Source of the DNA: an uncultured Gammaproteobacteria bacterium
Lineage (GTDB): Bacteria > Patescibacteriota > Patescibacteriia > Magasanikbacterales > GWA2-37-8
Length of the DNA: 64,000 nucleotides
Reading direction: 5' to 3'
Assembly (NCBI GenBank): GCA_964540825.1
Contig: CAZINT010000004.1
Span: forward strand, 24,835 to 88,834
In this document: positions 12,898 to 63,037 of the stretch, in pieces
Layout of the letters: each line of letters starts with the position of its first letter
Numbering within the stretch: the first letter of the stretch is position 1
Translations under genes and position numbers: made by a program
Notes under the pieces: model-generated
Database searches by the model: none
What the model was told of the DNA's origin: nothing
Seen by the model: only the letters and a program-made list of their open reading frames with translations

Positions 12898-14043
12898 TTA
12901 TACTCCGTTTGCCGCAACGAGTCGGTGCCTAATCGCATCACGCAAATTCACGAGTTCCGGGTAGTCATAAAAAAATAATACTTTCTGATCAGCGATCGAC
13001 GTGCCGGTTGGCCTGTCTTTAAGGACAAACGCGCTCCAACTTTCGGCCATATCTTCTTCAGGATTTACTGCGGCATAGTCGGTAATAAACCAGTCCTGAT
13101 GTTGGCTATACCAGTCGTTCATTTGTTCTTGTATGGCCGCATCATAGCCATCTTGAGAAAGCGCTTTATATTCACTCCAGGTCGATTTCCAAAAGCGATT
13201 GTAAAAAGTATTCAGATACGAATCGCTGCGCATACAGCCAAACAAAGAAGTGTAGGCTCTGCAGTCACTGCCGTCATCTATGCTACTGCTTTCGCCATCT
13301 TCGTTATCAGAAGGCGCCACGCTTTCATCATAACCCGCTTGTTCGTTTTGATTCAGGGTAAGTGCGTGACCAAACTCATGAATTAAAAAATAGGTGAGGC
13401 TTCCCGGGTCAAAATTGTTATTCGGAAACGCATCAGCAATATCGACGTAAAGGGTGTAGGTTCCGCTTCCGGCGTCGCCTGGCACCAAAGACGCTGCTGA
13501 TTTCGAGTTACCGTCGGTATACACGACGTAACCGTCGACAATGTCATACATCCCTTTTGGAAATAGGGTGGTGAACAATTTCCACGGACGCTGCAGCTTA
13601 TTTTTATCCTTTTGCCATTTTTTCAATGCCGCCGGAACCGCTGGACGGTCAGTAAGTTTGAGTTTGCCGTCATCTGCGCTGTACTCCATAATCGACGTTT
13701 CTTCATCCACGTCAAACGAATCCTGTTCGCGATCAGCGTTAATATACTTGTTCCAAATCGCCAATCCCTTAGCCGCTGCAGCCGACTCCTTCGCCGTGCA
13801 ATCGCCGCTTGAGCTGCACACGAGTTTGCAGGCCTTAGCACTCACGTCATAGCGCTCGCTTTTCAAACAATCTTCAGGCTTCAATTCCGGAAAACTATGT
13901 ACCGGAGCTTCGTTTGAAAAAGAAAATAGTCGGGCCTCGCTGATTTTGGCACTGACTGTTTGCAAAGCGTCCCCCGGCTGGCAGCCAGCACCCATTGTGA
14001 GGACGGCGATTAACCCTGCGGTTATAAAATATTTTTTAGACAT
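12898..14043 (-). CDS. Secreted zinc-metallopeptidase-like lipoprotein
   Basis: Signal peptide with a lipobox (LTMGAGC), HEFGH zincin motif and a downstream Glu (EDMAE); 381 aa. Confidence 0.65.
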   Translation of the reverse strand: MSKKYFITAGLIAVLTMGAGCQPGDALQTVSAKISEARLFSFSNEAPVHSFPELKPEDCLKSERYDVSAKACKLVCSSSGDCTAKESAAAAKGLAIWNKYINADREQDSFDVDEETSIMEYSADDGKLKLTDRPAVPAALKKWQKDKNKLQRPWKLFTTLFPKGMYDIVDGYVVYTDGNSKSAASLVPGDAGSGTYTLYVDIADAFPNNNFDPGSLTYFLIHEFGHALTLNQNEQAGYDESVAPSDNEDGESSSIDDGSDCRAYTSLFGCMRSDSYLNTFYNRFWKSTWSEYKALSQDGYDAAIQEQMNDWYSQHQDWFITDYAAVNPEEDMAESWSAFVLKDRPTGTSIADQKVLFFYDYPELVNLRDAIRHRLVAANGV

Positions 14044-15591: not shown

Positions 15592-16557
15592 TTATTTCTT
15601 CTTATTACGGCTCACACGAATCAGCCCGCCGCACGGAATAATCTCGACGCCTTTCTTTTCAAGTTCATCAAGAAACAAATTCATTCCCAGTGAATCGGAC
15701 GACATATGGCCGGCAATAATAACGTTCATATGCTGTTCGTTTACCCGCTTTAGAGCGTCCTCACGCATGTGCATACTAATAATTGTGCTGTATCCTACGC
15801 GAGAAAACTCTTCGTATACCTGCGCAGAGGGCTCGGTGCCACCGGTCATCTCAACGAGATATTTACCTACTTTTTTATGACGACCGCCCGCAATTATTTT
15901 TGGTCCCGCTCCGCGCCGTTTCGCCTCTTGATATTCGGGCTGTTCCATCAGCAGGTCAAGCATTTCACCAACTGTTTCTGGTTTTTCTTTCTTAAAAAGA
16001 TTTTCTAAAAATTGATTAACCAGGTTATCGGTAATCGTATGCGTGCTCATGAAGTTAATGCCGAGGATGCGAGCAATGTCGACCGCTCGGTGATGATTGG
16101 CTGCGTGTACGCTTCGCCCGACTTCTTGAATACGGTCACCCATTACTTTTTCAGCCACATGAATGGGCAGTCCAAAACTTTCAAAAACACCAGTCGACAT
16201 CTCCATCACTTCGTGAAGGCTCGCTAGCGCATTGCCTGTTGGATGGTGCGAAATTGCTAAATCGATCTTTTTACCGCGCTCATTCAACTGAGTGGCCATA
16301 AGTATTTCCCCGGCATCAATATCGATACCTGCAATAATCCGCTTCACCTCTTTGCGACCGTCGTCAACATGAATATAGCTATCCGGGTACGGATTCGTAA
16401 GGCGGGTAGTATCAAAATATTTTTTATCCTTTTCTTTAAGCTCGCTATATTCCTTTTTTTCCCGAGCTAAATACTTGGCCACTTCTTTCGCCCCCCGCGG
16501 ATCGGCTGCAATACCCATTTTAACTCCCAGTTCAAAGACATTTTTTACATTCAACAT
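15592..16557 (-). CDS. NIF3 (YqfO/YbgI) family dinuclear-metal protein
   Basis: ISHHP motif and the overall NIF3 fold in the translation; 321 aa. Confidence 0.8.
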   Translation of the reverse strand: MLNVKNVFELGVKMGIAADPRGAKEVAKYLAREKKEYSELKEKDKKYFDTTRLTNPYPDSYIHVDDGRKEVKRIIAGIDIDAGEILMATQLNERGKKIDLAISHHPTGNALASLHEVMEMSTGVFESFGLPIHVAEKVMGDRIQEVGRSVHAANHHRAVDIARILGINFMSTHTITDNLVNQFLENLFKKEKPETVGEMLDLLMEQPEYQEAKRRGAGPKIIAGGRHKKVGKYLVEMTGGTEPSAQVYEEFSRVGYSTIISMHMREDALKRVNEQHMNVIIAGHMSSDSLGMNLFLDELEKKGVEIIPCGGLIRVSRNKKK

Positions 16558-16668: not shown

Positions 16669-16813
16669 TTGACAAAACACTGAACTTGGCATAAAATACG
16701 TTTCTAAATATGAACAAACTTCGTCACAAGTTACCCGTCATCCCAAACAAAATTTTTAAACTCTTTTTTACCTGCTAAAAAGCCTCTTTTACTAAAGGCT
16801 TTTTTTAATTTTT
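16669..16813 (+). promoter_or_regulatory. Promoter, leaderless 22-codon leader peptide and terminator-like hairpin in front of the ATP-grasp operon
   Basis: TTGACA 16669-74, 17-nt spacer, TAAAAT 16692-97. ORF MNKLRHKLPVIPNKIFKLFFTC* at 16710-16778, whose stop overlaps the hairpin aaaagcct-cttttactaa-aggctttt; then U7..U5 directly before ATG 16814. Confidence 0.5.
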
Positions 16814-19219
16814 ATGGAAAAAAACGAACTAAAAGGCAAGACAATTTTAGTAGTCCATGCTGGCAGCATTAAAAAACGTTTTGTTTTTCAGCGCCTCAAG
16901 AAGCTCGGCATGACTGTGGTTTGTCTTAATAAAGACAAAAACCCGCTTATGCTGCCGTACGTCGATCATTGGATTTTGGCCGATCTTAACAATTACAAAG
17001 AATGCATTCAAAGCGTTAAATCGTTCCTTGCTTCACACCCTAAAACAGGCATTGACGGCGTGTTTACGTTTTGGGAAGAAAGCGTCCTTTTAACCGCAAA
17101 AATTGTCGATGCTTTTGGTTTTATCGGAACCTCCTTTAGAGTCGCCAATACTGCACGCAACAAATACTTATTCCGTGAATTTTGCCAACAAAACGGGCTC
17201 CCCGCCCCACGACACCAAATTATTCGTACTCGTGAGGATACTAAAAAACTACACAAAGAACTTCGTTTTCCGCTCGTTATCAAGCCGCAATATGGCTCCA
17301 GCAGCGCTTTCGTGGTACGCGTCGAGAATAGTAAAGAGCTGGAGGAAGCCTACGACTTCGTTAAAAATAATATAAAATCGCACGAATATGCGCCCGATTG
17401 GGATACCCTTGAAGTATTCGTCGAAGAATATATTGATGGCGACGAGGTCGATGTTGATATTCTCCTTCAAAACGGTAAAATCAAATTTTATTGTATTTCA
17501 GATAATTATAATAAAACGCGTGATCGCTTTTTCGTTGATAACGGGCAAGCGATCCCTTCAAGCCTGCCTGAGAAAGAACAGAATGACCTGATTGCCATGG
17601 CCGAAGAAATTTTGGAAAAACTCAATATTCAAGACGGCTGCATTCACTTTGAAGCCAAATCAACGAAAAAAGGACCTGTGCCGCTTGAAATTAATATGCG
17701 CCTCGGCGGCGACTATATCCCGTCATACATTAAAGGCGCGTGGGGAATTGATTTGGTTGATTATATTGCTAAAATCGCTCTTGGCATTCATTTTAAAATC
17801 GAGAAACCCGCAACACCGCTTAAGTATATTATTGGGTGGGACATTTACCCCGAGCACTCCGGTATTTTGGTAGAGCTTAATATCGATGAACAGCTCCGCA
17901 AAAAAACATATATCGAAGACATGTATCTGGCCAAAGAAACGGGTGACGCAGTACTTTTGCCGCCTGAAGGCAACGATGGCCTGGGGTGGTTAACGGTATC
18001 GGGCGATAACCTGCTCGACGCTCAGGATAACTTAAAAGAAGCCCGAAAATATATTACTTATAAGGTGGTTGGTTTTGACACCGAATCAACGCTCGGTAAA
18101 ACTGCTCGGCAGAACAGACTGTCTGCTGCGGTTATGAATAAGCAGCTCCTCCTCAAGGCGTCAAAAATCGAAAAAGTGCGCCACTCATCACTGGAAAATC
18201 AACGTAATTTGCGTATCGGCATTATCGGCAACTTGCCCGAACTAGGCAGCAAACAAAGAGCGATCCCTACCGCCAGTATTGATATCGCCAAAGAACTTAA
18301 CCACATCGGCTACGCCACGACTGTTTTTGACTTCAACAATCTTAACCGCGCTATTAGTGAATTAAAACGCACTTCGGTCGACCTCATTATCAATGCTTCC
18401 GAAGGTATTAATAACGACCCTAAACTCAGGCCGCAGGCAGCCGCTATTCTTGAGGCCATGCAATTGCCTTTTACCGGATCGAGCTCGTTTAACACCTCTC
18501 TTTCGCGCGATAAAATTCGCACCAAAAAACTATTGACCTATCACAATATCCCCACACCGGCCTGGGATTATGCTTACACGCTGGAAGACACGATTGACGA
18601 AAACCTCCGCTATCCATTAATCGTCAAACCCGGCACAACAGATAACTCAAGCGGCATTACCAATAATTCGGTTGTTAAAAACAAACAAGAGCTTGAACGT
18701 GAACTCAGACGAATTATTGTTGAAATGGGTCAGCCGGCCTTGGTTGAAGAATATATTGAAGGAGACGAGTATTATGTTTCGATCCTCGGCAGCAGCAAAG
18801 AAGACTTTAAGGTACTGCCGCTTTCCCGCTCTATCTTTAAAAAGTTACCGTCAAAATACTGGCACATCTACTCAGAAGAAGCCAAGGAACAAACCAATCC
18901 TGTTTACAAAAAAATTATCGTTGAGCGCCCAGTAAAAAATATCAGCGCCAAGCTTGAGTCGCTCTTGACCGAGATCGCTCTTGATACCTACCAAATTTTA
19001 CACTGTCGTGATTATGGCAGCGTTGAAATTCGCGTCGATAAAGATGATAATCCGTACGTGCTTGAACTTAATCCGAACCCGACCCTCCATACACAATCGG
19101 CGATTGTAAAATCGGCCAAGTTAGTCAACCTTAATTACAGTCAGTTACTGGAAGAAATTATCAGACTTTCAATCAAACGATTCAAGAAAAAAACTATGTA
19201 TCCTACATTTCTTGAGTAA
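16814..19219 (+). CDS. Fusion of two ATP-grasp domains in one 801-aa protein: N-terminal L-amino-acid-ligase-like module, C-terminal D-Ala-D-Ala-ligase-like module
   Basis: N-terminal half: VIKPQYGSSS...VFVEEYIDGDE...EINMRLGG. C-terminal half: IVKPGTTDNSSGIT...LVEEYIEGDEYYVSILG...LELNPNP. Confidence 0.75.
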   Translation: MEKNELKGKTILVVHAGSIKKRFVFQRLKKLGMTVVCLNKDKNPLMLPYVDHWILADLNNYKECIQSVKSFLASHPKTGIDGVFTFWEESVLLTAKIVDAFGFIGTSFRVANTARNKYLFREFCQQNGLPAPRHQIIRTREDTKKLHKELRFPLVIKPQYGSSSAFVVRVENSKELEEAYDFVKNNIKSHEYAPDWDTLEVFVEEYIDGDEVDVDILLQNGKIKFYCISDNYNKTRDRFFVDNGQAIPSSLPEKEQNDLIAMAEEILEKLNIQDGCIHFEAKSTKKGPVPLEINMRLGGDYIPSYIKGAWGIDLVDYIAKIALGIHFKIEKPATPLKYIIGWDIYPEHSGILVELNIDEQLRKKTYIEDMYLAKETGDAVLLPPEGNDGLGWLTVSGDNLLDAQDNLKEARKYITYKVVGFDTESTLGKTARQNRLSAAVMNKQLLLKASKIEKVRHSSLENQRNLRIGIIGNLPELGSKQRAIPTASIDIAKELNHIGYATTVFDFNNLNRAISELKRTSVDLIINASEGINNDPKLRPQAAAILEAMQLPFTGSSSFNTSLSRDKIRTKKLLTYHNIPTPAWDYAYTLEDTIDENLRYPLIVKPGTTDNSSGITNNSVVKNKQELERELRRIIVEMGQPALVEEYIEGDEYYVSILGSSKEDFKVLPLSRSIFKKLPSKYWHIYSEEAKEQTNPVYKKIIVERPVKNISAKLESLLTEIALDTYQILHCRDYGSVEIRVDKDDNPYVLELNPNPTLHTQSAIVKSAKLVNLNYSQLLEEIIRLSIKRFKKKTMYPTFLE

Positions 19220-19228
19220 GGATATTCT

Positions 19229-20143
19229 ATGGAAATGCGCCCGCCAACAATTGACCTTATCTCCGACAAGTCTATTGCCGAAAAGCTCTGGAAACAGTTT
19301 AGCCCGGGAGAAACTATTTATGACGACTGGGATTTTCGAGAAACGTTTCACCGCTATTATCATAACGAATTATTTTTTTATACTGCGAATGTTGATGAAA
19401 AAATAGTCGCGCTCCTGCCGCTCCAGATGGGTGAAAATGGTACTACGCTCGAATTTTTTGGAGGCGACTACATGGAAGATAACCGCGTTTTTACCCTCCC
19501 CGGGTATGAATACTGCATTCCCCAGCTCTACAAACACCTCGACAAACCAAATGATTTAGAATTCATTCGCGGCACCGACCCGTACACGCAAACTTTTCCG
19601 ATCGTGGATTACAAATACGTACTCCCCCTCGATACGTTTAAGAGTAGCGACGACTATATCGAAGCCCAGTACCACGGCGAAACCAAAAAGAAATTCAAAA
19701 AACGTTTACGCAAAATAGACGAAACGAACCCGCAAATTTTAGTTAATAACTGGGAGGATTTGGAACTTCTTTTTAAACTCAATATCGACCAATTTAAAGA
19801 CGGGCCCCGGCACTCCATGTTTGCCCGCGAGCATCGCCAAGATATTTTTCGCGACTTGTGCAAACCACACAACACCTTCACCCCTCGCCTCCTTACTTTT
19901 GTAGTTAATGGAGAAAAGCAGGCTGTTTCACTCGCCTTACTTTATAACAAAAATTACGCTTCCATTAACACCGGCATCGTTGCTGAACCGCTGCCAAACC
20001 TCAAAGAATACATCCACATCAAAAAATTTGATGATGCGATTACACAAGGCTGTACGCTTTTTGATGCATTTGTGAGAGACTACGGATGGAAAGAAAAATG
20101 GGGTTTCAAAAAAATTCCTCAATACCAATTCAAAGCTTCCTAA
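19229..20143 (+). CDS. Paralogue 1 of a pair: putative FemABX/BioF2-like (GNAT-fold) aminoacyl/acyl-transferase
   Basis: 304 aa. About 35-40% identical by eye to the next ORF, with the same motif order (LEFFGG..MEDN, FPIxDYxY, HGETKKK..KR.RK, LLTF..NG.KQAV, DxGWK). The lysine/arginine-rich motif resembles the Fem-family RK motif. Family call is tentative. Confidence 0.4.
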   Translation: MEMRPPTIDLISDKSIAEKLWKQFSPGETIYDDWDFRETFHRYYHNELFFYTANVDEKIVALLPLQMGENGTTLEFFGGDYMEDNRVFTLPGYEYCIPQLYKHLDKPNDLEFIRGTDPYTQTFPIVDYKYVLPLDTFKSSDDYIEAQYHGETKKKFKKRLRKIDETNPQILVNNWEDLELLFKLNIDQFKDGPRHSMFAREHRQDIFRDLCKPHNTFTPRLLTFVVNGEKQAVSLALLYNKNYASINTGIVAEPLPNLKEYIHIKKFDDAITQGCTLFDAFVRDYGWKEKWGFKKIPQYQFKAS

Positions 20144-20178
20144 ATCACATTTTTAATATACCGCCCGCACGACCGTTT

Positions 20179-21087
20179 ATGTCTTTTACGATACAAAAAA
20201 TTACGGATCTTGAGGAAGCAAAAAAATATTGGAGCCTTTTGACTCCTGGCCAAACAATCTATGATGTTTGGGATTTTCGGTATTGCGCCTATGCATTCAC
20301 CAACCATGAATTGGCATTTTACGTTGGTTTTGAAGCCGAAGAGCCTGTCGGACTCCTCCCCCTCGAATACCATGGCTCTGCCAAATACTTGGAATTCTTT
20401 GGTGGTCGCTTTATGGAAGATAACAAAATCTTTTTAAAAAAAGGATACGAAGACAAAGCCCCTTACTTTTGGCAAGCGATCAATCTCCCCGCTCGACTTT
20501 CGTATATTACCGCAAGCGATTCTTTTGCCAGCACCTTCCCGATCTTAGATTATCGATATTCGCTTCCCTTAGCCGAATTGGGCAGTGTGGAAAATTATAT
20601 TCAAACCCGCTTTCATGGCGAAACTAAAAAAAAGCTTCTTAAACGCATCAGAAAGTTTGAATTTGAAAATGAAATTACGATACTCGAAAATCAATGGGAT
20701 GACTTAGATCTATTATTTTATTTTAACAAAGAAAAATTTAAAGCAGATTCTATTTTTCATTTTCCCTTCCGCGAAGCGCTTTTTAAAGAACTCGCGCATT
20801 CTCCATTTAGCCCTAAACTGCTTACCTTCATAATAAACGGTAAGAAACAAGCGGTCACTATGTCACTTGCCCACAAAAAAACCTATGTGTCCCTCAATTC
20901 AGGTGTGAGCGCTGAAGCGTCCAAAGATTTAAGCAGTTTTATGAGACTTAAAAAAATAGAGCACGCTTTCAAACACGGAATGACCTTGTACGATGCCTTG
21001 GCCAACGACTGTGGATGGAAGGACGCTTGGCACTTTGATAAATCTCCGCAATACGAGTGGAGGCGTGACTTGCCGCCAGAAAATTAA
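20179..21087 (+). CDS. Paralogue 2 of the Fem/BioF2-like putative transferase
   Basis: 303 aa; tandem duplicate of the 19229-20143 gene. Start chosen at ATG 20179, after the upstream stop. Confidence 0.4.
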   Translation: MSFTIQKITDLEEAKKYWSLLTPGQTIYDVWDFRYCAYAFTNHELAFYVGFEAEEPVGLLPLEYHGSAKYLEFFGGRFMEDNKIFLKKGYEDKAPYFWQAINLPARLSYITASDSFASTFPILDYRYSLPLAELGSVENYIQTRFHGETKKKLLKRIRKFEFENEITILENQWDDLDLLFYFNKEKFKADSIFHFPFREALFKELAHSPFSPKLLTFIINGKKQAVTMSLAHKKTYVSLNSGVSAEASKDLSSFMRLKKIEHAFKHGMTLYDALANDCGWKDAWHFDKSPQYEWRRDLPPEN

Positions 21088-22983
21088 TTACCCTTTAAGT
21101 TTCGTTAAGAAGGCCGCAACTGCAGGGTCTTCTTTTTTTGCACGCACGGTATCAATATAACTTTTAAGTTTTTCCGGTGTTCCTTCGGTGTAGAACGAAA
21201 CAACTTCGTCCGATAATTCAGCCAGCGCCCTAACACCGGCTTCAGCATCGCTTACCCGGTATTTATCACCTTCCAAAACCAATACTCCTTTTTCAATAAG
21301 GCGCGAAATCATTGCGAGACCGGCGGCGAAGTAAAACTCACCTGAAACACCCACTTGGCTCGGTTTATTTTTCAGGTAGTCACAAATATCCCCAAGTTTC
21401 GCCATAAACTGATTGCGGATATTGATATTGTGCGGATTGCCTTCAGCCATTGTTAGTGTTAGCAGTTTCATGTTGCCCGTATCAGCCTTCATTTCTTCAA
21501 TCGCTCTCGTGTGTGAACCGCTTCCCAGACGACCCTTAACTTTGGTGTCATAACGTGCCTTTGGGGTAAACTGGTGGCCTAGTTCATGCAAGGCATTGTC
21601 CAAAATTGAAGCCCGGTCAAATTCAGCTTCAGTAATTTCATCATGAAGAACACTCCGAAGCGCAGGGAGCGCCATAGTCGTCGTGACATCAAGCACGGCA
21701 TTGTTATGGGCCAAAATTCTTTCCCGCCCATCTTCGCCGCGCGTCATCCACGACAAATTCGGTGCATAGGCGACCGTTTGATAATTGGTAATCAATTTTG
21801 GAACGTGAGTTTCCTTATCAAAGAAGGCTTGATTTGATTGTAGTTTTTTATCAGCGAGGGCGCGGAAATAATCAATTATTGGTTCAATCTCTCTATTTTC
21901 TTTAGAAATAAAGCCCAAGCGTAGTTCCACGTCTACTTTTTCGGCATCACCCGCTACCCCGGGGTTGTCTTGTGGCACTATCATAAGCGGGCAGCCTGCT
22001 TCAGCAAGCGCGACCATCATTTTTTGTAGATTAATCCATTCCACACTCAAAGGTTTAGGGTCAGTCTTGCGCGAACCAAACTGTTCCCCTACCGCACGTA
22101 GATACGCGGCAAATTTGTCATATACTGCACCAAGTTTACCAGCCTTAACTTCAGCTTCAACACGATTTGCGAGCGTCTGCATTTTCTTTTCCAGCGCACC
22201 AAATTCATAAGGAAATACTTCGATATAGGGCAGGTGCGTAACTTCATCACTCTTCGGATCACGCTGAACATCATAGATATACTTAGCGCCATCTTGGGTG
22301 CCAAGCGTTGATTCGGCCGAGCCTCCCGGCGCATCGGCCATTTCGGTTTGTTTTATAAAAGCATGATCAACAAATTTACCGAGCTCGGCCGCCATATCAA
22401 CCAAGAGGTCGATCTCATTCACACTGTCAAAACCCCATTTCTTAATTATTTCTGAAGCATTAGCATCTTTTTTAAGACTGCGGAGCCAGTTTCTTTGAAC
22501 CGTTACTTCGGCCATTTGACGCTCGGCAGACATGAGCAATAACTCGCGCCATTCTTCTGGAAGGAACGTACGCATTGGTTCAAGCGCACCGAATTGACGA
22601 ATACGAAATTTTTCTCCGAGCACCGCTTCATTCTCGAGAATCACAACGAGCTTGGCTGCTTCCGGATCTTCATTTTCTCGCAAAATCTTAGCCCATGCCG
22701 CCGCCTTTTCAGCCAGCAGGGGCTGAACTTTTTTATTCCAATTTTCAGTAACGAGCCCTCGAGCCAAAGTAAAAAAATCTTCTAATCTTTCAATAGTAGG
22801 CGGCATCTCTTTCCAATCAGCCCCTTCTTTTCCGCCTTCTACAAGCAAACGCCGGACTTCTAAACCGGCATCAATATACTTTTGTACATCCGGGCTAACT
22901 GCTTTGTTTTTATGCAGCGGATCAAGCCGGCTCGCGCTGTCAATTTTCATTCCTTCTCCAAAACGAGGTTTTGCTTCTGACAT
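21088..22983 (-). CDS. Cytoplasmic 631-aa protein with a HExxH...E zinc-metallopeptidase-like motif
   Basis: HELGH followed about 30 aa later by IEEMKAD; no signal peptide; mostly helical. Convergent with the ATP-grasp operon, with zero intergenic distance. Confidence 0.45.
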   Translation of the reverse strand: MSEAKPRFGEGMKIDSASRLDPLHKNKAVSPDVQKYIDAGLEVRRLLVEGGKEGADWKEMPPTIERLEDFFTLARGLVTENWNKKVQPLLAEKAAAWAKILRENEDPEAAKLVVILENEAVLGEKFRIRQFGALEPMRTFLPEEWRELLLMSAERQMAEVTVQRNWLRSLKKDANASEIIKKWGFDSVNEIDLLVDMAAELGKFVDHAFIKQTEMADAPGGSAESTLGTQDGAKYIYDVQRDPKSDEVTHLPYIEVFPYEFGALEKKMQTLANRVEAEVKAGKLGAVYDKFAAYLRAVGEQFGSRKTDPKPLSVEWINLQKMMVALAEAGCPLMIVPQDNPGVAGDAEKVDVELRLGFISKENREIEPIIDYFRALADKKLQSNQAFFDKETHVPKLITNYQTVAYAPNLSWMTRGEDGRERILAHNNAVLDVTTTMALPALRSVLHDEITEAEFDRASILDNALHELGHQFTPKARYDTKVKGRLGSGSHTRAIEEMKADTGNMKLLTLTMAEGNPHNINIRNQFMAKLGDICDYLKNKPSQVGVSGEFYFAAGLAMISRLIEKGVLVLEGDKYRVSDAEAGVRALAELSDEVVSFYTEGTPEKLKSYIDTVRAKKEDPAVAAFLTKLKG

Positions 22984-35685: not shown

Positions 35686-37533
35686 TTAGTAAAGATTAAG
35701 TCTTCCCTCCTCAAATTTTTTAGTATCTAAGCGGCTGTTTTCATTTAACCAATTTAAGAAGTTGTCACGTCTTGCACCATTCATCAGCTGCACCTGTGAC
35801 TTAACTCCAAACATCGGGAACGCATATGCTTTTTTAACCACCCCGTCTTGCAGCACCAAGCCCACGCTCAATCCTTCTTGCGTTTCCTCGGAAAAATACT
35901 GATCAAAAATAAAGTTGCCGAGCGAATAGAAAATCGGTTTACCTTTATAGATCTCGCTTTCTTCAATCACATGCGGATGGGCCCCAATAACTGCGCTGAC
36001 GCCCTGATCGATGAAACTATGCGCCAGATCACGTTCTTGCTGACGCGAAATGCGCTGATATTCGACGCCCCAGTGCATCATCACAATAATATAGCGTGCT
36101 TTTGCCTTGGCATCTTTAATCGCGGCCGAAATTTTTGCCGTATCCATAGGGTGATCGGTCGTATTAATCCCGATAAAAGCAATTTGTTCGTCGCTGCTTG
36201 GCAGCTTGGAAAACCAGGTATACTCCGGCCCTTCACGTAGTTCGTCGCCAAAATATCCGATACCAGCCTTATTGAGTGTCTCGTGGGTAAAATCCACATT
36301 TGCCCAGCCCATATCGAGCGTGTGGTTGTTGGCCAGGCTGACTGCGGTAAAACCGTAATCCTTAATTTGATCAGCCAATTTTGGATCGAAACGAAAAGCA
36401 ATTGTTTTAGTCGTGGGCACACGTGTTGGTGCAAACGGGCCTTCGAGGTTGGCAATCAAAAAATCCATACCCTTGAAAAACCGATTTTCTTGCCCTTTAA
36501 GCTTGGCAAAAAGATAATCCAATCCTTCGCTCCCAAAGGCTTTGGCAACATTACGGTCAAGCATTATGTCGCCAAAAAACTGTATTGTGGTAATCGGCGT
36601 CTCTGTCGATTTTCCAGCGGTGTAATAGCCAATTATATGACTCGTCGTTTCAGTCGTGGTTGGATTTTGACTTATTGTTCCGCTGTTGGTTGATGAAAGT
36701 AGCGTAAACTTTTGAGCCTGTAGTATCTGGTTATAATAGAGCAAAAAATATAAACTTTTTGGACTGTCTACTTCCAGCTTACTAACACGATCCAGATCGC
36801 CGACTGCCAAAACATTGCGTGATAATTCATCATGAAAACTCGCGACCGCTTCAGGCAGGTAATGCGAAAAATCTACGCTCGCGAGCACCAAACTATTTTT
36901 TGGTAAAATCTCAGTCAAAGTTTTGGCAAGCTGTTCAAGCGTCGAAGTGGGTGTATTCTCTTTTACAATCAGCGGTACGATTTGAGCATTTTTCCACGTA
37001 CGCTTAATAAACGGCACGTCAGCCCCAATCGTGTGCTCCGGATCAATCACTGTTTCATCAACTGCCGCAATTTTTTGATCCACCAGTTTTTGGACGATAT
37101 CCTGATCAACATTTAAGGTGCCATAGGGTGTTTTCCATGCACCAAGACTCGTAATAACGGGGCTACGTCCGGCTTGGGCATGGTTGGGACCCACAAGGAC
37201 CACGATCGGCGGATTTTGCTCGGCAAGTGCATTAAAAAAACGAGCTTCGTAGACCCCGGCTACCAAGTGATGAGGAATAACACCCGAGACAACTTTTTCT
37301 TTGGCAGCTACGGCCTTATTAGTTTCTGCCGCAATAAAATAGCGGTCATACACTGCAGGGTCAAGAAAGCTGGCCTTGTGTTCGACACGGGGCAATTCGG
37401 ATGAAGCGTGAAACCACGAAATTGATCGAGTGTCGGGGGTGCTCGGAGTATTTTTTTTGAAGAACCACAGCCCTCCAATTACTGCCCCAAGTATCAATAA
37501 AACCCCGGTTATTCTGGTGATTTTGAGTATCAT
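35686..37533 (-). CDS. Membrane-anchored fusion: MEMO1/AmmeMemoRadiSam-B-like domain plus CapA (PgsA-type poly-gamma-glutamate synthesis, metallophosphatase-like) domain
   Basis: N-terminal transmembrane helix. Residues ~90-300 show a Memo-like pattern (VIPHHLVAG...GPNH). Residues ~320-600 show CapA motifs (FFGDIMLDR, LANNHTLD, MHWGVEY, GAHPHV, SLGNFIFDQ). Confidence 0.65.
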   Translation of the reverse strand: MILKITRITGVLLILGAVIGGLWFFKKNTPSTPDTRSISWFHASSELPRVEHKASFLDPAVYDRYFIAAETNKAVAAKEKVVSGVIPHHLVAGVYEARFFNALAEQNPPIVVLVGPNHAQAGRSPVITSLGAWKTPYGTLNVDQDIVQKLVDQKIAAVDETVIDPEHTIGADVPFIKRTWKNAQIVPLIVKENTPTSTLEQLAKTLTEILPKNSLVLASVDFSHYLPEAVASFHDELSRNVLAVGDLDRVSKLEVDSPKSLYFLLYYNQILQAQKFTLLSSTNSGTISQNPTTTETTSHIIGYYTAGKSTETPITTIQFFGDIMLDRNVAKAFGSEGLDYLFAKLKGQENRFFKGMDFLIANLEGPFAPTRVPTTKTIAFRFDPKLADQIKDYGFTAVSLANNHTLDMGWANVDFTHETLNKAGIGYFGDELREGPEYTWFSKLPSSDEQIAFIGINTTDHPMDTAKISAAIKDAKAKARYIIVMMHWGVEYQRISRQQERDLAHSFIDQGVSAVIGAHPHVIEESEIYKGKPIFYSLGNFIFDQYFSEETQEGLSVGLVLQDGVVKKAYAFPMFGVKSQVQLMNGARRDNFLNWLNENSRLDTKKFEEGRLNLY

Positions 37534-61999: not shown

Positions 62000-63037
62000 T
62001 TATTGGTTTATTTGGTCTTTTACAGACTGGAACAGGACTTCATTGATGCTTCTGGCTCCAGTAAATAATACTATCATACGGTCTACGCCAAGGGCAATAC
62101 CCCCCGCTTCGGGGATGCCCGACTCAAGCGCCGCGATAAAATCCGGGTCTACCGGCCAGGTTGGTTTGCCCAAGCGTTCGCGCAGCTGCCGATCGGCCTC
62201 AAGACGTTTATACTGCTCCGCCGCATCAAGCAGCTCACCGAACCCGTTAGCAATTTCCAGGCCGGCAATATAGAGTTCGGCTCGCTCCGCATAGCGACTG
62301 TCCGCCGGGCACACCCGAGACAACGAACACATCTGACGTGGGTAATCATAGACAAAAACCGGCTTCTCCTGGCCTAATTTTGGCTCAATTTCGTTTAAAA
62401 AAATCTTGAAAAACAGATCTTCATATTCATCGGACGCCTCAACGGCATAGCCCTTCTCTTTGGCCAAACCAGCCACGGCGTCACGATCAAGATATTGGTC
62501 TAAATCTACCCCAACATATTCTTGCCACACTTCTTTCATGGTTTTTCGATCCCATTTTTCTTGGATCCGGCATTTTTTGCCCTCCCACTCAACCGAGTGT
62601 TTGCCCATTGCCCGGCCAATATGTTGAAACAGCTTCTCGGTATCATCCATAAAGTCGTGGTATCCGCCGGGTGCCCGGTACCATTCAAGCATCGTAAACT
62701 CGGTATTATGAGTCCCGTCACCAAACGCTTCATGGTTACGAAAACATTTCACGATAGAAAAATTTTTGGTATATCCAGCGGCCAAAAGCTTTTTGAGCCC
62801 AAATTCTGGCGACGTATGCAAATAAAATTGCTCGGCTTTCCCTCCGGGATCAGAAAATGTAACCGGTACCGGGTAGAGGTATGGCTCTTGCCCGGGCAAG
62901 CGGAGCGCAATTGGTGTATCGGTTTCAACAAACCCTTGCTCCCAAAAGAATTCGCGAGTTAAGCGAATTATGTGGCATCGTTCGTCGTATATTTTTTTAA
63001 GCCGCGGATTACCCGCCAGCTCTTGCCAGGTAGACAT
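62000..63037 (-). CDS. epmA: EF-P (R)-beta-lysine ligase (truncated class II LysRS paralogue)
   Basis: Class II aaRS core motifs without an anticodon-binding domain; 345 aa; adjacent to efp. Confidence 0.8.
   Translation of the reverse strand: MSTWQELAGNPRLKKIYDERCHIIRLTREFFWEQGFVETDTPIALRLPGQEPYLYPVPVTFSDPGGKAEQFYLHTSPEFGLKKLLAAGYTKNFSIVKCFRNHEAFGDGTHNTEFTMLEWYRAPGGYHDFMDDTEKLFQHIGRAMGKHSVEWEGKKCRIQEKWDRKTMKEVWQEYVGVDLDQYLDRDAVAGLAKEKGYAVEASDEYEDLFFKIFLNEIEPKLGQEKPVFVYDYPRQMCSLSRVCPADSRYAERAELYIAGLEIANGFGELLDAAEQYKRLEADRQLRERLGKPTWPVDPDFIAALESGIPEAGGIALGVDRMIVLFTGARSINEVLFQSVKDQINQ

Follow-up and report, generated by a model that had tools for sequence, protein, structure and literature searches.

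The 64,000-nucleotide stretch of contig CAZINT010000004.1 analysed here (the window) carries an operon for a fused double ATP-grasp ligase and two paralogous Fem-like transferases, facing a gene for an HExxH protein. With confidence and doubt about evenly balanced, we read it as the Magasanikbacteria-type version of a cluster found throughout the Patescibacteria (the Candidate Phyla Radiation, CPR) that assembles a short peptide or peptide conjugate independently of the ribosome and of a non-ribosomal peptide synthetase (NRPS), and also trims it. What is observed are the domains and folds, the conserved catalytic residues and the linkage of the genes; from these we infer substrates, the order of the steps, the use of aminoacyl-tRNA and regulation. 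The four open reading frames (ORFs), those of the fusion, paralogue A (GNAT-A), paralogue B (GNAT-B) and the HExxH protein, lie where a first reading of this DNA from its letters (the original prediction) had placed them, and the motifs it quoted are present in the translations. The genes had been said to follow one another without a gap; in fact, spacers of 9 nt and ~35 nt separate the fusion from paralogue A and paralogue A from paralogue B. The zero spacing to the convergent HExxH gene is exact, its stop codon abutting that of paralogue B as TAATTA. For paralogue B, the mechanical ORF start at 20086 overlaps GNAT-A and is unlikely, and 20179 is the most likely start. No hydrophobic segment was found in any of the four proteins (top 19-residue Kyte-Doolittle mean, 1.54), and all four are predicted to be soluble.

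The fusion joins two different ATP-grasp modules in one chain, as had been proposed. Its N-terminal module matches the Pfam families ATP-grasp_4 (105.2 bits, cut-off 27), ATP-grasp_3 (87.8 bits, cut-off 23.2) and LAL_C2 (PF18603; 36.5 bits, cut-off 29.4, aa 344-418), with an ATPgrasp_N match spanning aa 29-418. The closest solved structures are the L-amino-acid ligases (LALs) BL00235 (3vot, E 2e-28), BacD and 4wd3. The module has the phosphate-binding Lys, the hinge Glu-Glu, the Mg ligands (E...ExN) and the Arg that follows ExN, and K157, E204/E205, H278, E280, E292, N294 and R296 are invariant across 24 diverse fusion homologues. This half, with its catalytic residues complete, is predicted to be of the LAL type.

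The C-terminal module matches Dala_Dala_lig_C (Pfam; 113.2 bits, aa 590-783), and its closest solved structures are Ddl enzymes, 3r23 first (E 3e-23). It falls below the curated Ddl cut-offs (NF002378, 184.4 versus 243; TIGR01205, 149.8 versus 245.65), no Dala_Dala_lig_N match was found for the fusion among 13 Pfam families at E up to 0.01, and the GGxSxE-type motif of the Ddl N-terminus, which holds the D-Ala1-binding Glu, is absent by inspection. K605, E645/E646, E751 and N753 are conserved, E738 is kept in most copies, and Arg740 is nearly invariant. Position 736, which we take to be that of DdlB Arg255 (the DdlB equivalences come from reading the alignment), could be read in 79 fusions; 71 of them have Arg there, and Ser occurs solely in the window and in its nearest relative, L005. 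Loss of catalytic residues from one half, listed in the original prediction among the refuting outcomes, is thus seen at this one position alone. The equivalent of the Ddl omega-loop Tyr (Tyr216) is not conserved (AKE where Ddl reads AKY), and six relatives have Gly at the Asp257-equivalent position. The D-Ala-D-Ala-ligase pattern first described for this half therefore holds at the level of a Ddl-like family, and a canonical Ddl is ruled out by the scores below the curated cut-offs and the missing D-Ala-site residues.

The two modules have diverged to the same extent, with median identities to the window of 57% and 58%; compared with the nearest relative, the N-terminal module is 82% and the C-terminal module 89% identical. 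Because it is as conserved as the N-terminal half, and 89% identical to the nearest relative, the C-terminal module is under purifying selection, and its decay in this lineage is ruled out on the same grounds. The linker between the modules has a median identity of 43%, with a partly conserved motif, AKIEKVR, in the consensus. The two halves share merely 29% identity over 128 aa around the ATP-grasp core and are thus members of different ATP-grasp families, not a tandem duplication. Ddl-like modules of the Magasanikbacteria type vary at canonical catalytic positions, with Arg replaced by Ser, Lys, Gln or Leu, the Asp257-equivalent Glu by Gly, and ExN by ExD (seen in the window, L007, L011, L013, L028, L030 and L068), whereas in other CPR lineages the motif DYGRVEIRVD...ELNPNP is nearly fixed. 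Overall, the module is still highly conserved. A relation between loss of Arg736 and the presence of Fem-like genes was not supported: a residue other than Arg occurs in 4 of 19 loci with linked Fem-like genes and in 4 of 60 without, numbers too small to decide.

In all, 683 fusion homologues were found. The best 120 of the 683 are all full-length (782-835 aa, 54-100% identical, 97-100% query coverage), and the named ones among these 120 come from Magasanikbacteria, Roizmanbacteria, Komeilibacteria, Parcubacteria or Patescibacteria. When one genome per species was scanned, at least 284 fusion-encoding stretches were found, of which 79 loci (51-83% identical) were kept; the lineages include Magasanik-, Roizman-, Falkow-, Komeili-, Kerfeld-, Jackson-, Buchanan-, Gribaldo-, Peregrini- and Gracilibacteria, among others. 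Every informatively named record with the fusion is from the Patescibacteria. Many records of metagenome-assembled genomes (L005, L006, L009 and others) that combine the CPR-specific fusion with Magasanikbacteria-type synteny are titled ‘uncultured Gammaproteobacteria bacterium’, which looks like a mislabelling.

For 81 loci, the neighbouring genes, up to four places away from the fusion in either direction, were grouped by clustering. The fusion is the constant core of a variable co-directional gene cluster. A Fem-like gene lies directly downstream of it in 20 of the 81 loci and is absent in 61, with one to three copies where present; the co-occurrence of fusion and paralogue pair expected at first is thus real as a linkage, without being general, and the Fem-like pair is a lineage-specific accessory, not a fixed component. 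The close Fem-like subfamily is restricted to CPR (~50 clusters at 90% identity). Among its metagenomic members with at least 37% identity and enough flanking sequence, seven of eight stand directly downstream of a fusion, and Fem-like relatives at 30% identity or below are not linked to it. Because the fusion is full-length in hundreds of homologues and has 284 genome hits, and because the close Fem-like subfamily occurs almost exclusively beside it, the gene arrangement is far above chance expectation. Identity between the window and L005 is very uneven, at 92% for paralogue A, 83% for the fusion, 55% for paralogue B and 54% for the HExxH protein.

The two Fem-like paralogues are 43% identical over 297 aa (E 9e-83), more than the ~35% first estimated. 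The sole Pfam match of either is Acetyltransf_6 (PF13480; 35.6 bits for A and 36.8 for B, cut-off 22); FemAB (PF02388) is not matched. Sequence searches against solved structures returned nothing significant for them, and fold searches were needed. The paralogues were modelled as tandem-GNAT proteins (pLDDT 96.6), and the top structural matches of the paralogue model are FemX and aminoacyl-tRNA-dependent peptide synthases, the best single match being Sbb17, a natural-product peptide synthase and not a wall enzyme. The fold-search figures are 17.2 for S. aureus FemX, 17.1 for Weissella FemX, 16.2 for FemA and 13.8-14.5 for the MprF and L-PGS domains; 2hqy, a Bacteroides protein with no function assigned, is among the eight top matches at 15.5, and CoA-dependent tandem GNATs rank after the Fem-type matches, at 13.6 or lower. 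Foldseek independently placed Sbb17/Sba18 and FemX within its top nine (E ~1e-10, TM 0.62-0.66). A Fem-type fold of the modelled paralogues is thus supported by two independent methods, which bears out their first description as GNAT-fold, Fem/BioF2-like proteins. A tree resolves several old paralogue clades, with gene order shuffled between genomes, and paralogue B is an old paralogue. Distant GNAT relatives of 370 aa match FemAB_like (PF04339) weakly (E 2.5e-4), and their gene neighbours are uninformative.

Three residues are invariant in 47 sequences of the family. Among them is K288 of the motif YGWKEKW close to the C-terminus, a candidate counterpart of the catalytic Lys of Fem-type enzymes. 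Around the helix at aa 150-164 (GETKKKFKKRLRKID), residues 148-165 include eight Lys/Arg in paralogue A and seven in B. Lys305 and a basic tRNA-binding helix have been described for FemX, and Lys329 for DhpH-C (PMC12945691). If the paralogues were instead BioF2/CelD-type tandem-GNAT N-acyltransferases, they would cap the ligase product with an acetyl or acyl group. Such a role would suit PF13480 as their sole Pfam family, whose members are mostly annotated as acetyltransferases, and the label of CelD/BcsL family acetyltransferase that one source gives a homologue. However, the invariant Lys near the C-terminus and the Lys/Arg-rich helix opening domain 2 resemble FemX and DhpH-C (PMC12945691), and the Q/RxxGxG/A acetyl-CoA motif was not seen in domain 2 by inspection, so we consider acyl-CoA use improbable.

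The presence of FemX and FemA among the best structural matches also favors a role in the cell wall, in which the ligase and the Fem-like enzymes would act on UDP-MurNAc-peptide or lipid II so as to make or alter the cross-bridge or stem peptide, with recycling of murein peptides by the peptidase. Wall side chains are known to be made by two enzyme classes, ATP-grasp ligases (Ddl, D-Asp ligase) and Fem transferases (PMC2922099); the epimerase-like protein, LysA-like decarboxylase and Ddl-like paralogue encoded at other loci have counterparts in murein-peptide metabolism, and the strong conservation across CPR suits a housekeeping function in the envelope. Yet the recurrent neighbours in the 81 loci include no mur, mraY, murG, murJ or pbp gene, the conserved partners count no envelope gene, LAL_C2 on the N-terminal module is typical of ligases that act on free amino acids, and the Ddl-like half stays below the Ddl cut-offs and has neither a Pfam Ddl N-terminal match nor a Tyr216 equivalent. 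The top structural match, Sbb17, comes from natural-product synthesis, and PF02388 is unmatched. On balance, a role in the wall is unlikely, if still a serious alternative.

The convergent HExxH protein carries the motifs H466ELGH470 (21574-21588) and E496EMKAD501 (21481-21498), which align with HELMH and EEAKAD of 5zum, and H466, E467, H470 and E497 are invariant in its family. Zinc motifs of M49 peptidases, that is, dipeptidyl peptidases III (DPP III), read HEXXGH or HEXXH, plus EEXR(K)AE(D) (PMC9820243). Sequence searches against solved structures gave nothing significant, and a fold search, which was needed, found the two-lobe DPP III fold. Pfam Peptidase_M49 was matched neither by 13 family members at E up to 1 nor by 10 distant relatives at E up to 0.01, and a sequence bridge from the family (~240 clusters at 50% identity in an exhaustive search) to Pfam M49 was sought and not found, even with the distant members from that search. 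DUF6421, the family of PolE-type Fe/pterin-dependent oxidases, is not matched either, and the protein does not show their HE/DxxH-x(21-23)-E pattern; the PolE family DUF6421 is without the second M49 motif (PMC12614342). We conclude that the HExxH protein is a putative DPP III-like protein of peptidase type.

The DPP III-like gene is near the fusion in 10 of the 81 loci, co-directional and inside the cluster in L050, L055, L056, L078 and L010, and convergent in the window and in L005. In L050, the order is an unknown 457-aa gene, the fusion, an ATP-grasp gene, the DPP III-like gene and a decarboxylase gene. Peptidases of three types are found repeatedly near the fusion (DPP III-like in 10 loci, M17-type aminopeptidase in six by sequence reading, and C45 in two), as is a dipeptide-epimerase-like gene in 10 loci. 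CPR bacteria generally lack amino-acid biosynthesis. These points would suit amino-acid and peptide homeostasis in an auxotrophic symbiont, with peptidases freeing dipeptides from imported peptides, and ligases and epimerase interconverting or re-ligating them, e.g., for D-amino acids. However, spending ATP and charged tRNA on re-joining amino acids is hard to square with pure catabolism, the peptidases are facultative partners, and the epimerase gene is not in the window; salvage is, in our judgment, quite improbable.

Directly upstream of the fusion lie a promoter-like site, a putative leader ORF and a terminator-like hairpin, as expected from the original claim that the operon has its own promoter and attenuator; what they do is predicted from their form. 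The promoter-like site, matching 11 of 12 consensus positions, is the best in the scanned region, by consensus match alone, and a TTGACA-type promoter occurs at the equivalent relative position in related loci. Minimum-energy and centroid RNA folds both contain the hairpin, and its U-run ends 2 nt upstream of the fusion start codon. The leader ORF is retained in L005 (MHTLRHKFPVIPTRIFKLLFTY), whose fusion is 83% identical, with four codons differing, by reading, at a synonymous third position alone. In the window, its 5′ untranslated region would be ~6 nt long, and it has no obvious ribosome-binding site. Comparable hairpins occur upstream of the fusion start in 45 of 79 loci, within ~130 nt and mostly within 100, and an ATG-started small ORF ends at or inside the hairpin in 24 of these 45. 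Ten of these 24 small ORFs contain an acidic-Pro motif (e.g., EDPYP, EEPDT, NEPPN); counted in any frame, the motif is found in 16 loci on the sense strand versus two on the antisense strand. By reading, EDPYP is preserved through synonymous changes in L011, L013 and L014. Acidic-Pro variants seen upstream of the fusion include EDPYP, DDPQT, EEPDT, NEPPN and QPPG (L011:4372-4447, L013:3306-3381, L014:9866-9941 and ~16 others). Pro-Pro-Gly/Asn motifs are known ribosome-stalling sequences. No Rfam family matches the leader region, with no known riboswitch or leader family upstream, and the MAFFT alignment of the leaders was too poor to support RNA structure analysis. Translation-coupled attenuation is plausible for this leader, and the acidic-Pro leaders may represent an undescribed class of leader-peptide attenuators in CPR.

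The small ORF could alternatively be the precursor of a peptide made by the ribosome and modified after translation (RiPP), its 22-aa product being modified by the ATP-grasp and Fem-like enzymes and processed by the peptidase. A terminator between the precursor gene and the enzyme genes is common in RiPP clusters, and the small ORF is conserved with synonymous changes upstream of the enzymes. Against this, the small ORFs are non-homologous across lineages, with acidic-Pro types elsewhere, and the majority of loci have no such ORF; the stop codon within the terminator stem fits attenuation; and the ATP-grasp modules are of the LAL and Ddl types, not the graspetide type. A precursor role is thus very improbable.

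Taken together, the most economical model, which we hold to be about as probable as all others combined, is a soluble assembly line. A carboxylate is the point of extension for ATP-grasp ligases, an amine for Fem-type enzymes. By analogy with characterised relatives, the N-terminal LAL module would take a free L-amino acid, activate its carboxylate to an acyl-phosphate and condense it with a second amino acid to give a dipeptide. The C-terminal Ddl-like module would form a second ATP-dependent amide bond, probably on the dipeptide or a related carboxylate; since D-Ala-specific residues are absent, its substrates would not be D-Ala and D-Ala. Each Fem-fold paralogue would then move one amino acid from aminoacyl-tRNA onto a free amino group of the product, by N-terminal extension or side-chain branching, so that the peptide would reach roughly 3-5 residues. 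N-terminal dipeptides would be stripped by the cytosolic DPP III-like peptidase, for product turnover, proofreading or the supply of dipeptides from other peptides, and the leader ORF with its stop codon in the terminator hairpin would gate expression from directly upstream of the ligase gene. Several linked families (L-amino-acid ligase, Ddl, DPP III and dipeptide epimerase) have characterised members that make or act on free dipeptides, and the additional ATP-grasp ligases, LysA/FslC-like decarboxylase, DegT-like protein, methyltransferase and ABC exporter of other loci fit the tailoring of a small-molecule peptide.

Several points weigh against this model. Aminoacyl-tRNA use is proposed from similarity between modelled and solved folds at 9-15% sequence identity, and the data do not tell a free peptide from a peptide on a larger acceptor. 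A secondary-metabolite enzyme would not usually stay 51-60% identical between lineages of phylum rank, and such conservation points to a housekeeping role. Partner sets differ strongly between lineages, and the products may differ too. Ser at the DdlB Arg255 position here, and Gly at the Asp257-equivalent position in some relatives, mean that some lineages may have an altered second ligation or none. The DPP III-like gene is missing from L003 and L004, whose operons are otherwise identical, and lies apart from the fusion in all three distant family members examined. Obligate linkage of this gene to the fusion is thereby ruled out; the linkage is real but facultative, and the cognate-peptidase role first suggested retains a peptidase-type fold and a genuine association, not a constant one. 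The earlier interpretation as a whole is thus partly supported.

A wider proposal, which we regard as doubtful, is that the fused ligase and its partners (Fem-like, DPP III-like, dipeptide epimerase, LysA-like decarboxylase, PP-loop-like protein and extra ATP-grasp ligases) form a Patescibacteria-wide, Mur-ligase-independent route that makes or edits envelope peptides from free or salvaged dipeptides. Epimerisation of dipeptides would supply a D-amino acid, tRNA-dependent steps would add branches, and a translation-sensing leader-peptide attenuator would control the pathway. If true, this would be a new way to wall peptides in organisms unable to make their own amino acids. The table lists the window features and the recurrent partners of the fusion.

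Table. Features of the ligase locus in the window, and genes that recur beside the fusion among the 81 loci surveyed (aa, amino acids; PLP, pyridoxal phosphate)
Feature	Position	Strand	Loci (of 81)	Remarks
Sigma-70-like promoter, predicted	16669..16697	+		TTGACA, 17 nt, TAAAAT; 11/12 consensus positions
22-codon leader ORF, putative	16710..16778	+		MNKLRHKLPVIPNKIFKLFFTC; stop codon overlaps 5′ hairpin arm
Terminator-like hairpin	16777..16811	+		9-bp stem, 16777-16785 with 16796-16804, then U-run
Fusion ligase ORF	16814-19219	+		801 aa
Fusion N-terminal module, L-amino-acid-ligase-type ATP-grasp	16814..18073	+		aa 1-420; from Pfam and solved relatives
Fusion inter-module linker	18074..18280	+		aa 421-489; least conserved part
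Fusion C-terminal module, Ddl-like ATP-grasp	18281..19219	+		aa 490-801; Ser736 codon 19019-19021
Fem-like paralogue A (GNAT-A)	19229-20143	+		304 aa; basic helix aa 150-164 (19676-19720); invariant Lys288 (20090-20092)
Fem-like paralogue B (GNAT-B)	20179-21087	+		302 aa; start chosen where alignment with paralogue A begins
DPP III-like (M49-like) HExxH zinc metallopeptidase, predicted	21088-22983	-		631 aa
Partner: 457-aa protein		same as fusion	24	no Pfam/NCBIfam match
Partner: Fem-like GNAT		same as fusion	20	27 copies, 1-3 per locus
Partner: L-Ala-D/L-Glu-epimerase-like enolase		same as fusion	10	197 bits
Partner: third ATP-grasp ligase		same as fusion	10	
Partner: LysA/FslC-like PLP decarboxylase		same as fusion	10	
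Partner: DPP III-like protein		same as fusion	10	
Partner: DegT-like protein		same as fusion	7	
Partner: SET-domain protein		same as fusion	7	
Partner: stand-alone paralogue of Ddl-like half		same as fusion	6	

Occasional partners include a PurD-like ATP-grasp protein, a C45 hydrolase, a probable methyltransferase (by sequence reading) and an ABC exporter. Apart from the Fem-like and DPP III-like genes, none of the recurrent partner genes lies within the 64-kb window, the epimerase gene included. The commonest partner, the 457-aa protein (e.g., L074:7902-9275; not in the window), has an invariant FGKxS that resembles the PP-loop SGGKDS, a weak likeness (E 0.2 to TtuA), and invariant C321, C334, C337 and C340. 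In L024 (Magasanikbacteria), two full-length fusion paralogues ~2.5 kb apart (L024:10001-12355 and L024:14899 onward) flank a 457-aa gene. On the other side of the operon in the window, the divergent 321-aa neighbour (15592-16557, minus strand) has a weak DUF34/NIF3 match (24 bits). This NIF3-like gene adjoins the ligase block, on either side, in 20 loci, and the block inverts between it and ileS. Since the ligase block inverts in place between the same flanks, the NIF3-like, RuvA, IleRS and ClpB-like neighbours were rejected as functional partners and attributed to inherited local synteny.

Three other genes of the window, all on the minus strand, deserve mention. A 615-aa protein (35686-37533) combines a Memo-like domain with a PGA_cap domain (CapA, poly-gamma-glutamate capsule synthesis). 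A 345-aa protein (62000-63037) consists of a class II aminoacyl-tRNA-synthetase core alone (tRNA-synt_2, 165 bits), and lacks an anticodon-binding domain. It may be a paralogue resembling EpmA/PoxA or AsnA, and could be of interest in view of the tRNA-dependent enzymes and Pro-rich leaders. A 381-aa protein with a lipoprotein-like N-terminus (12898-14043) has a second HExxH site (LIHEFGHAL), with weak, sub-threshold matches to Peptidase_Mx1 and Peptidase_Mx, and is unrelated to the DPP III-like protein.

The Patescibacteria make up a large share of bacterial diversity and are mostly uncultured, with tiny genomes and almost no biosynthetic capacity. The product of a system that would spend ATP and charged tRNA, and whose core enzyme is 51-60% identical across phylum-level lineages, must matter to them; it could be an envelope component, a signal or a host-interaction molecule. 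Because the proteins are predicted to be soluble and are of ordinary size, a direct test by heterologous expression is possible. Biocatalysis may gain from it a natural peptide ligase that works in two steps. The system may also add a DPP III-like family and a subfamily of tRNA-dependent transferases, both new and the latter unconnected with cell-wall or antibiotic contexts, as well as a candidate class of leader-peptide attenuators in CPR.

Each enzyme is a member of a known superfamily. As first supposed, the architecture appears not to have been described: we found no account of the LAL-Ddl-like fusion, its spread in CPR or its coupling to Fem-like and DPP III-like genes in the full-text literature searched, although an earlier mention is possible, a key amidoligase survey lying outside that search. 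The N-terminal module resembles the LALs of dipeptide-antibiotic pathways (BL00235, BacD/YwfE, RizA, RhiM/RhiC) in its combination of ATP-grasp_4 and LAL_C2 and its conserved catalytic residues. Unlike BL00235, BacD, RizA and RhiM, it is fused to a Ddl-like ligase and conserved across a superphylum, not sporadic. Similarly, the C-terminal module shares with Ddl the Dala_Dala_lig_C match, the Lys and the Glu/Asn Mg ligands, and departs from it in scoring below the curated cut-offs, in the lack of a detected N-terminal domain and of a Tyr216 equivalent, and in having Ser for Arg255 here.

GshF (GshAB) and the large subunit of carbamoyl-phosphate synthetase (CPSase) carry out two successive ATP-dependent steps in one polypeptide, as proposed for the fusion. 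In GshF, the last module is a Ddl-like ATP-grasp, and the C-terminal half of the fusion matches 3ln6 (GshAB) weakly; the first module of GshF, however, is a glutamate-cysteine ligase, not an ATP-grasp enzyme. CPSase contains two ATP-grasp modules, and its halves are duplicates, whereas those of the fusion belong to different ATP-grasp families. In the mycosporine-like amino acid pathway, the ATP-grasp enzyme MysC and then the Ddl-like ligase MysD act on one scaffold. These are separate proteins that need a 4-deoxygadusol core (DDGS and an O-methyltransferase), and such genes occur in none of the 81 loci. The Fem-like paralogues are merely 9-15% identical to FemX, FemA, FemB and MurM and to Sbb17/Orf11, PacB, DhpH/DhpK and VlmA, and their multiple old clades resemble the FemX/FemA/FemB division of labour. 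The HExxH protein differs from the pentapeptide-motif DPP III enzymes of M49 (Corallococcus CoDPP III, Caldithrix CaDPP III) in forming a family of its own with a long helical N-terminal region and, in some genomes, in being encoded within a ligase cluster. The cluster would represent NRPS-independent peptide ligation by ATP-grasp and tRNA-dependent GNAT enzymes.

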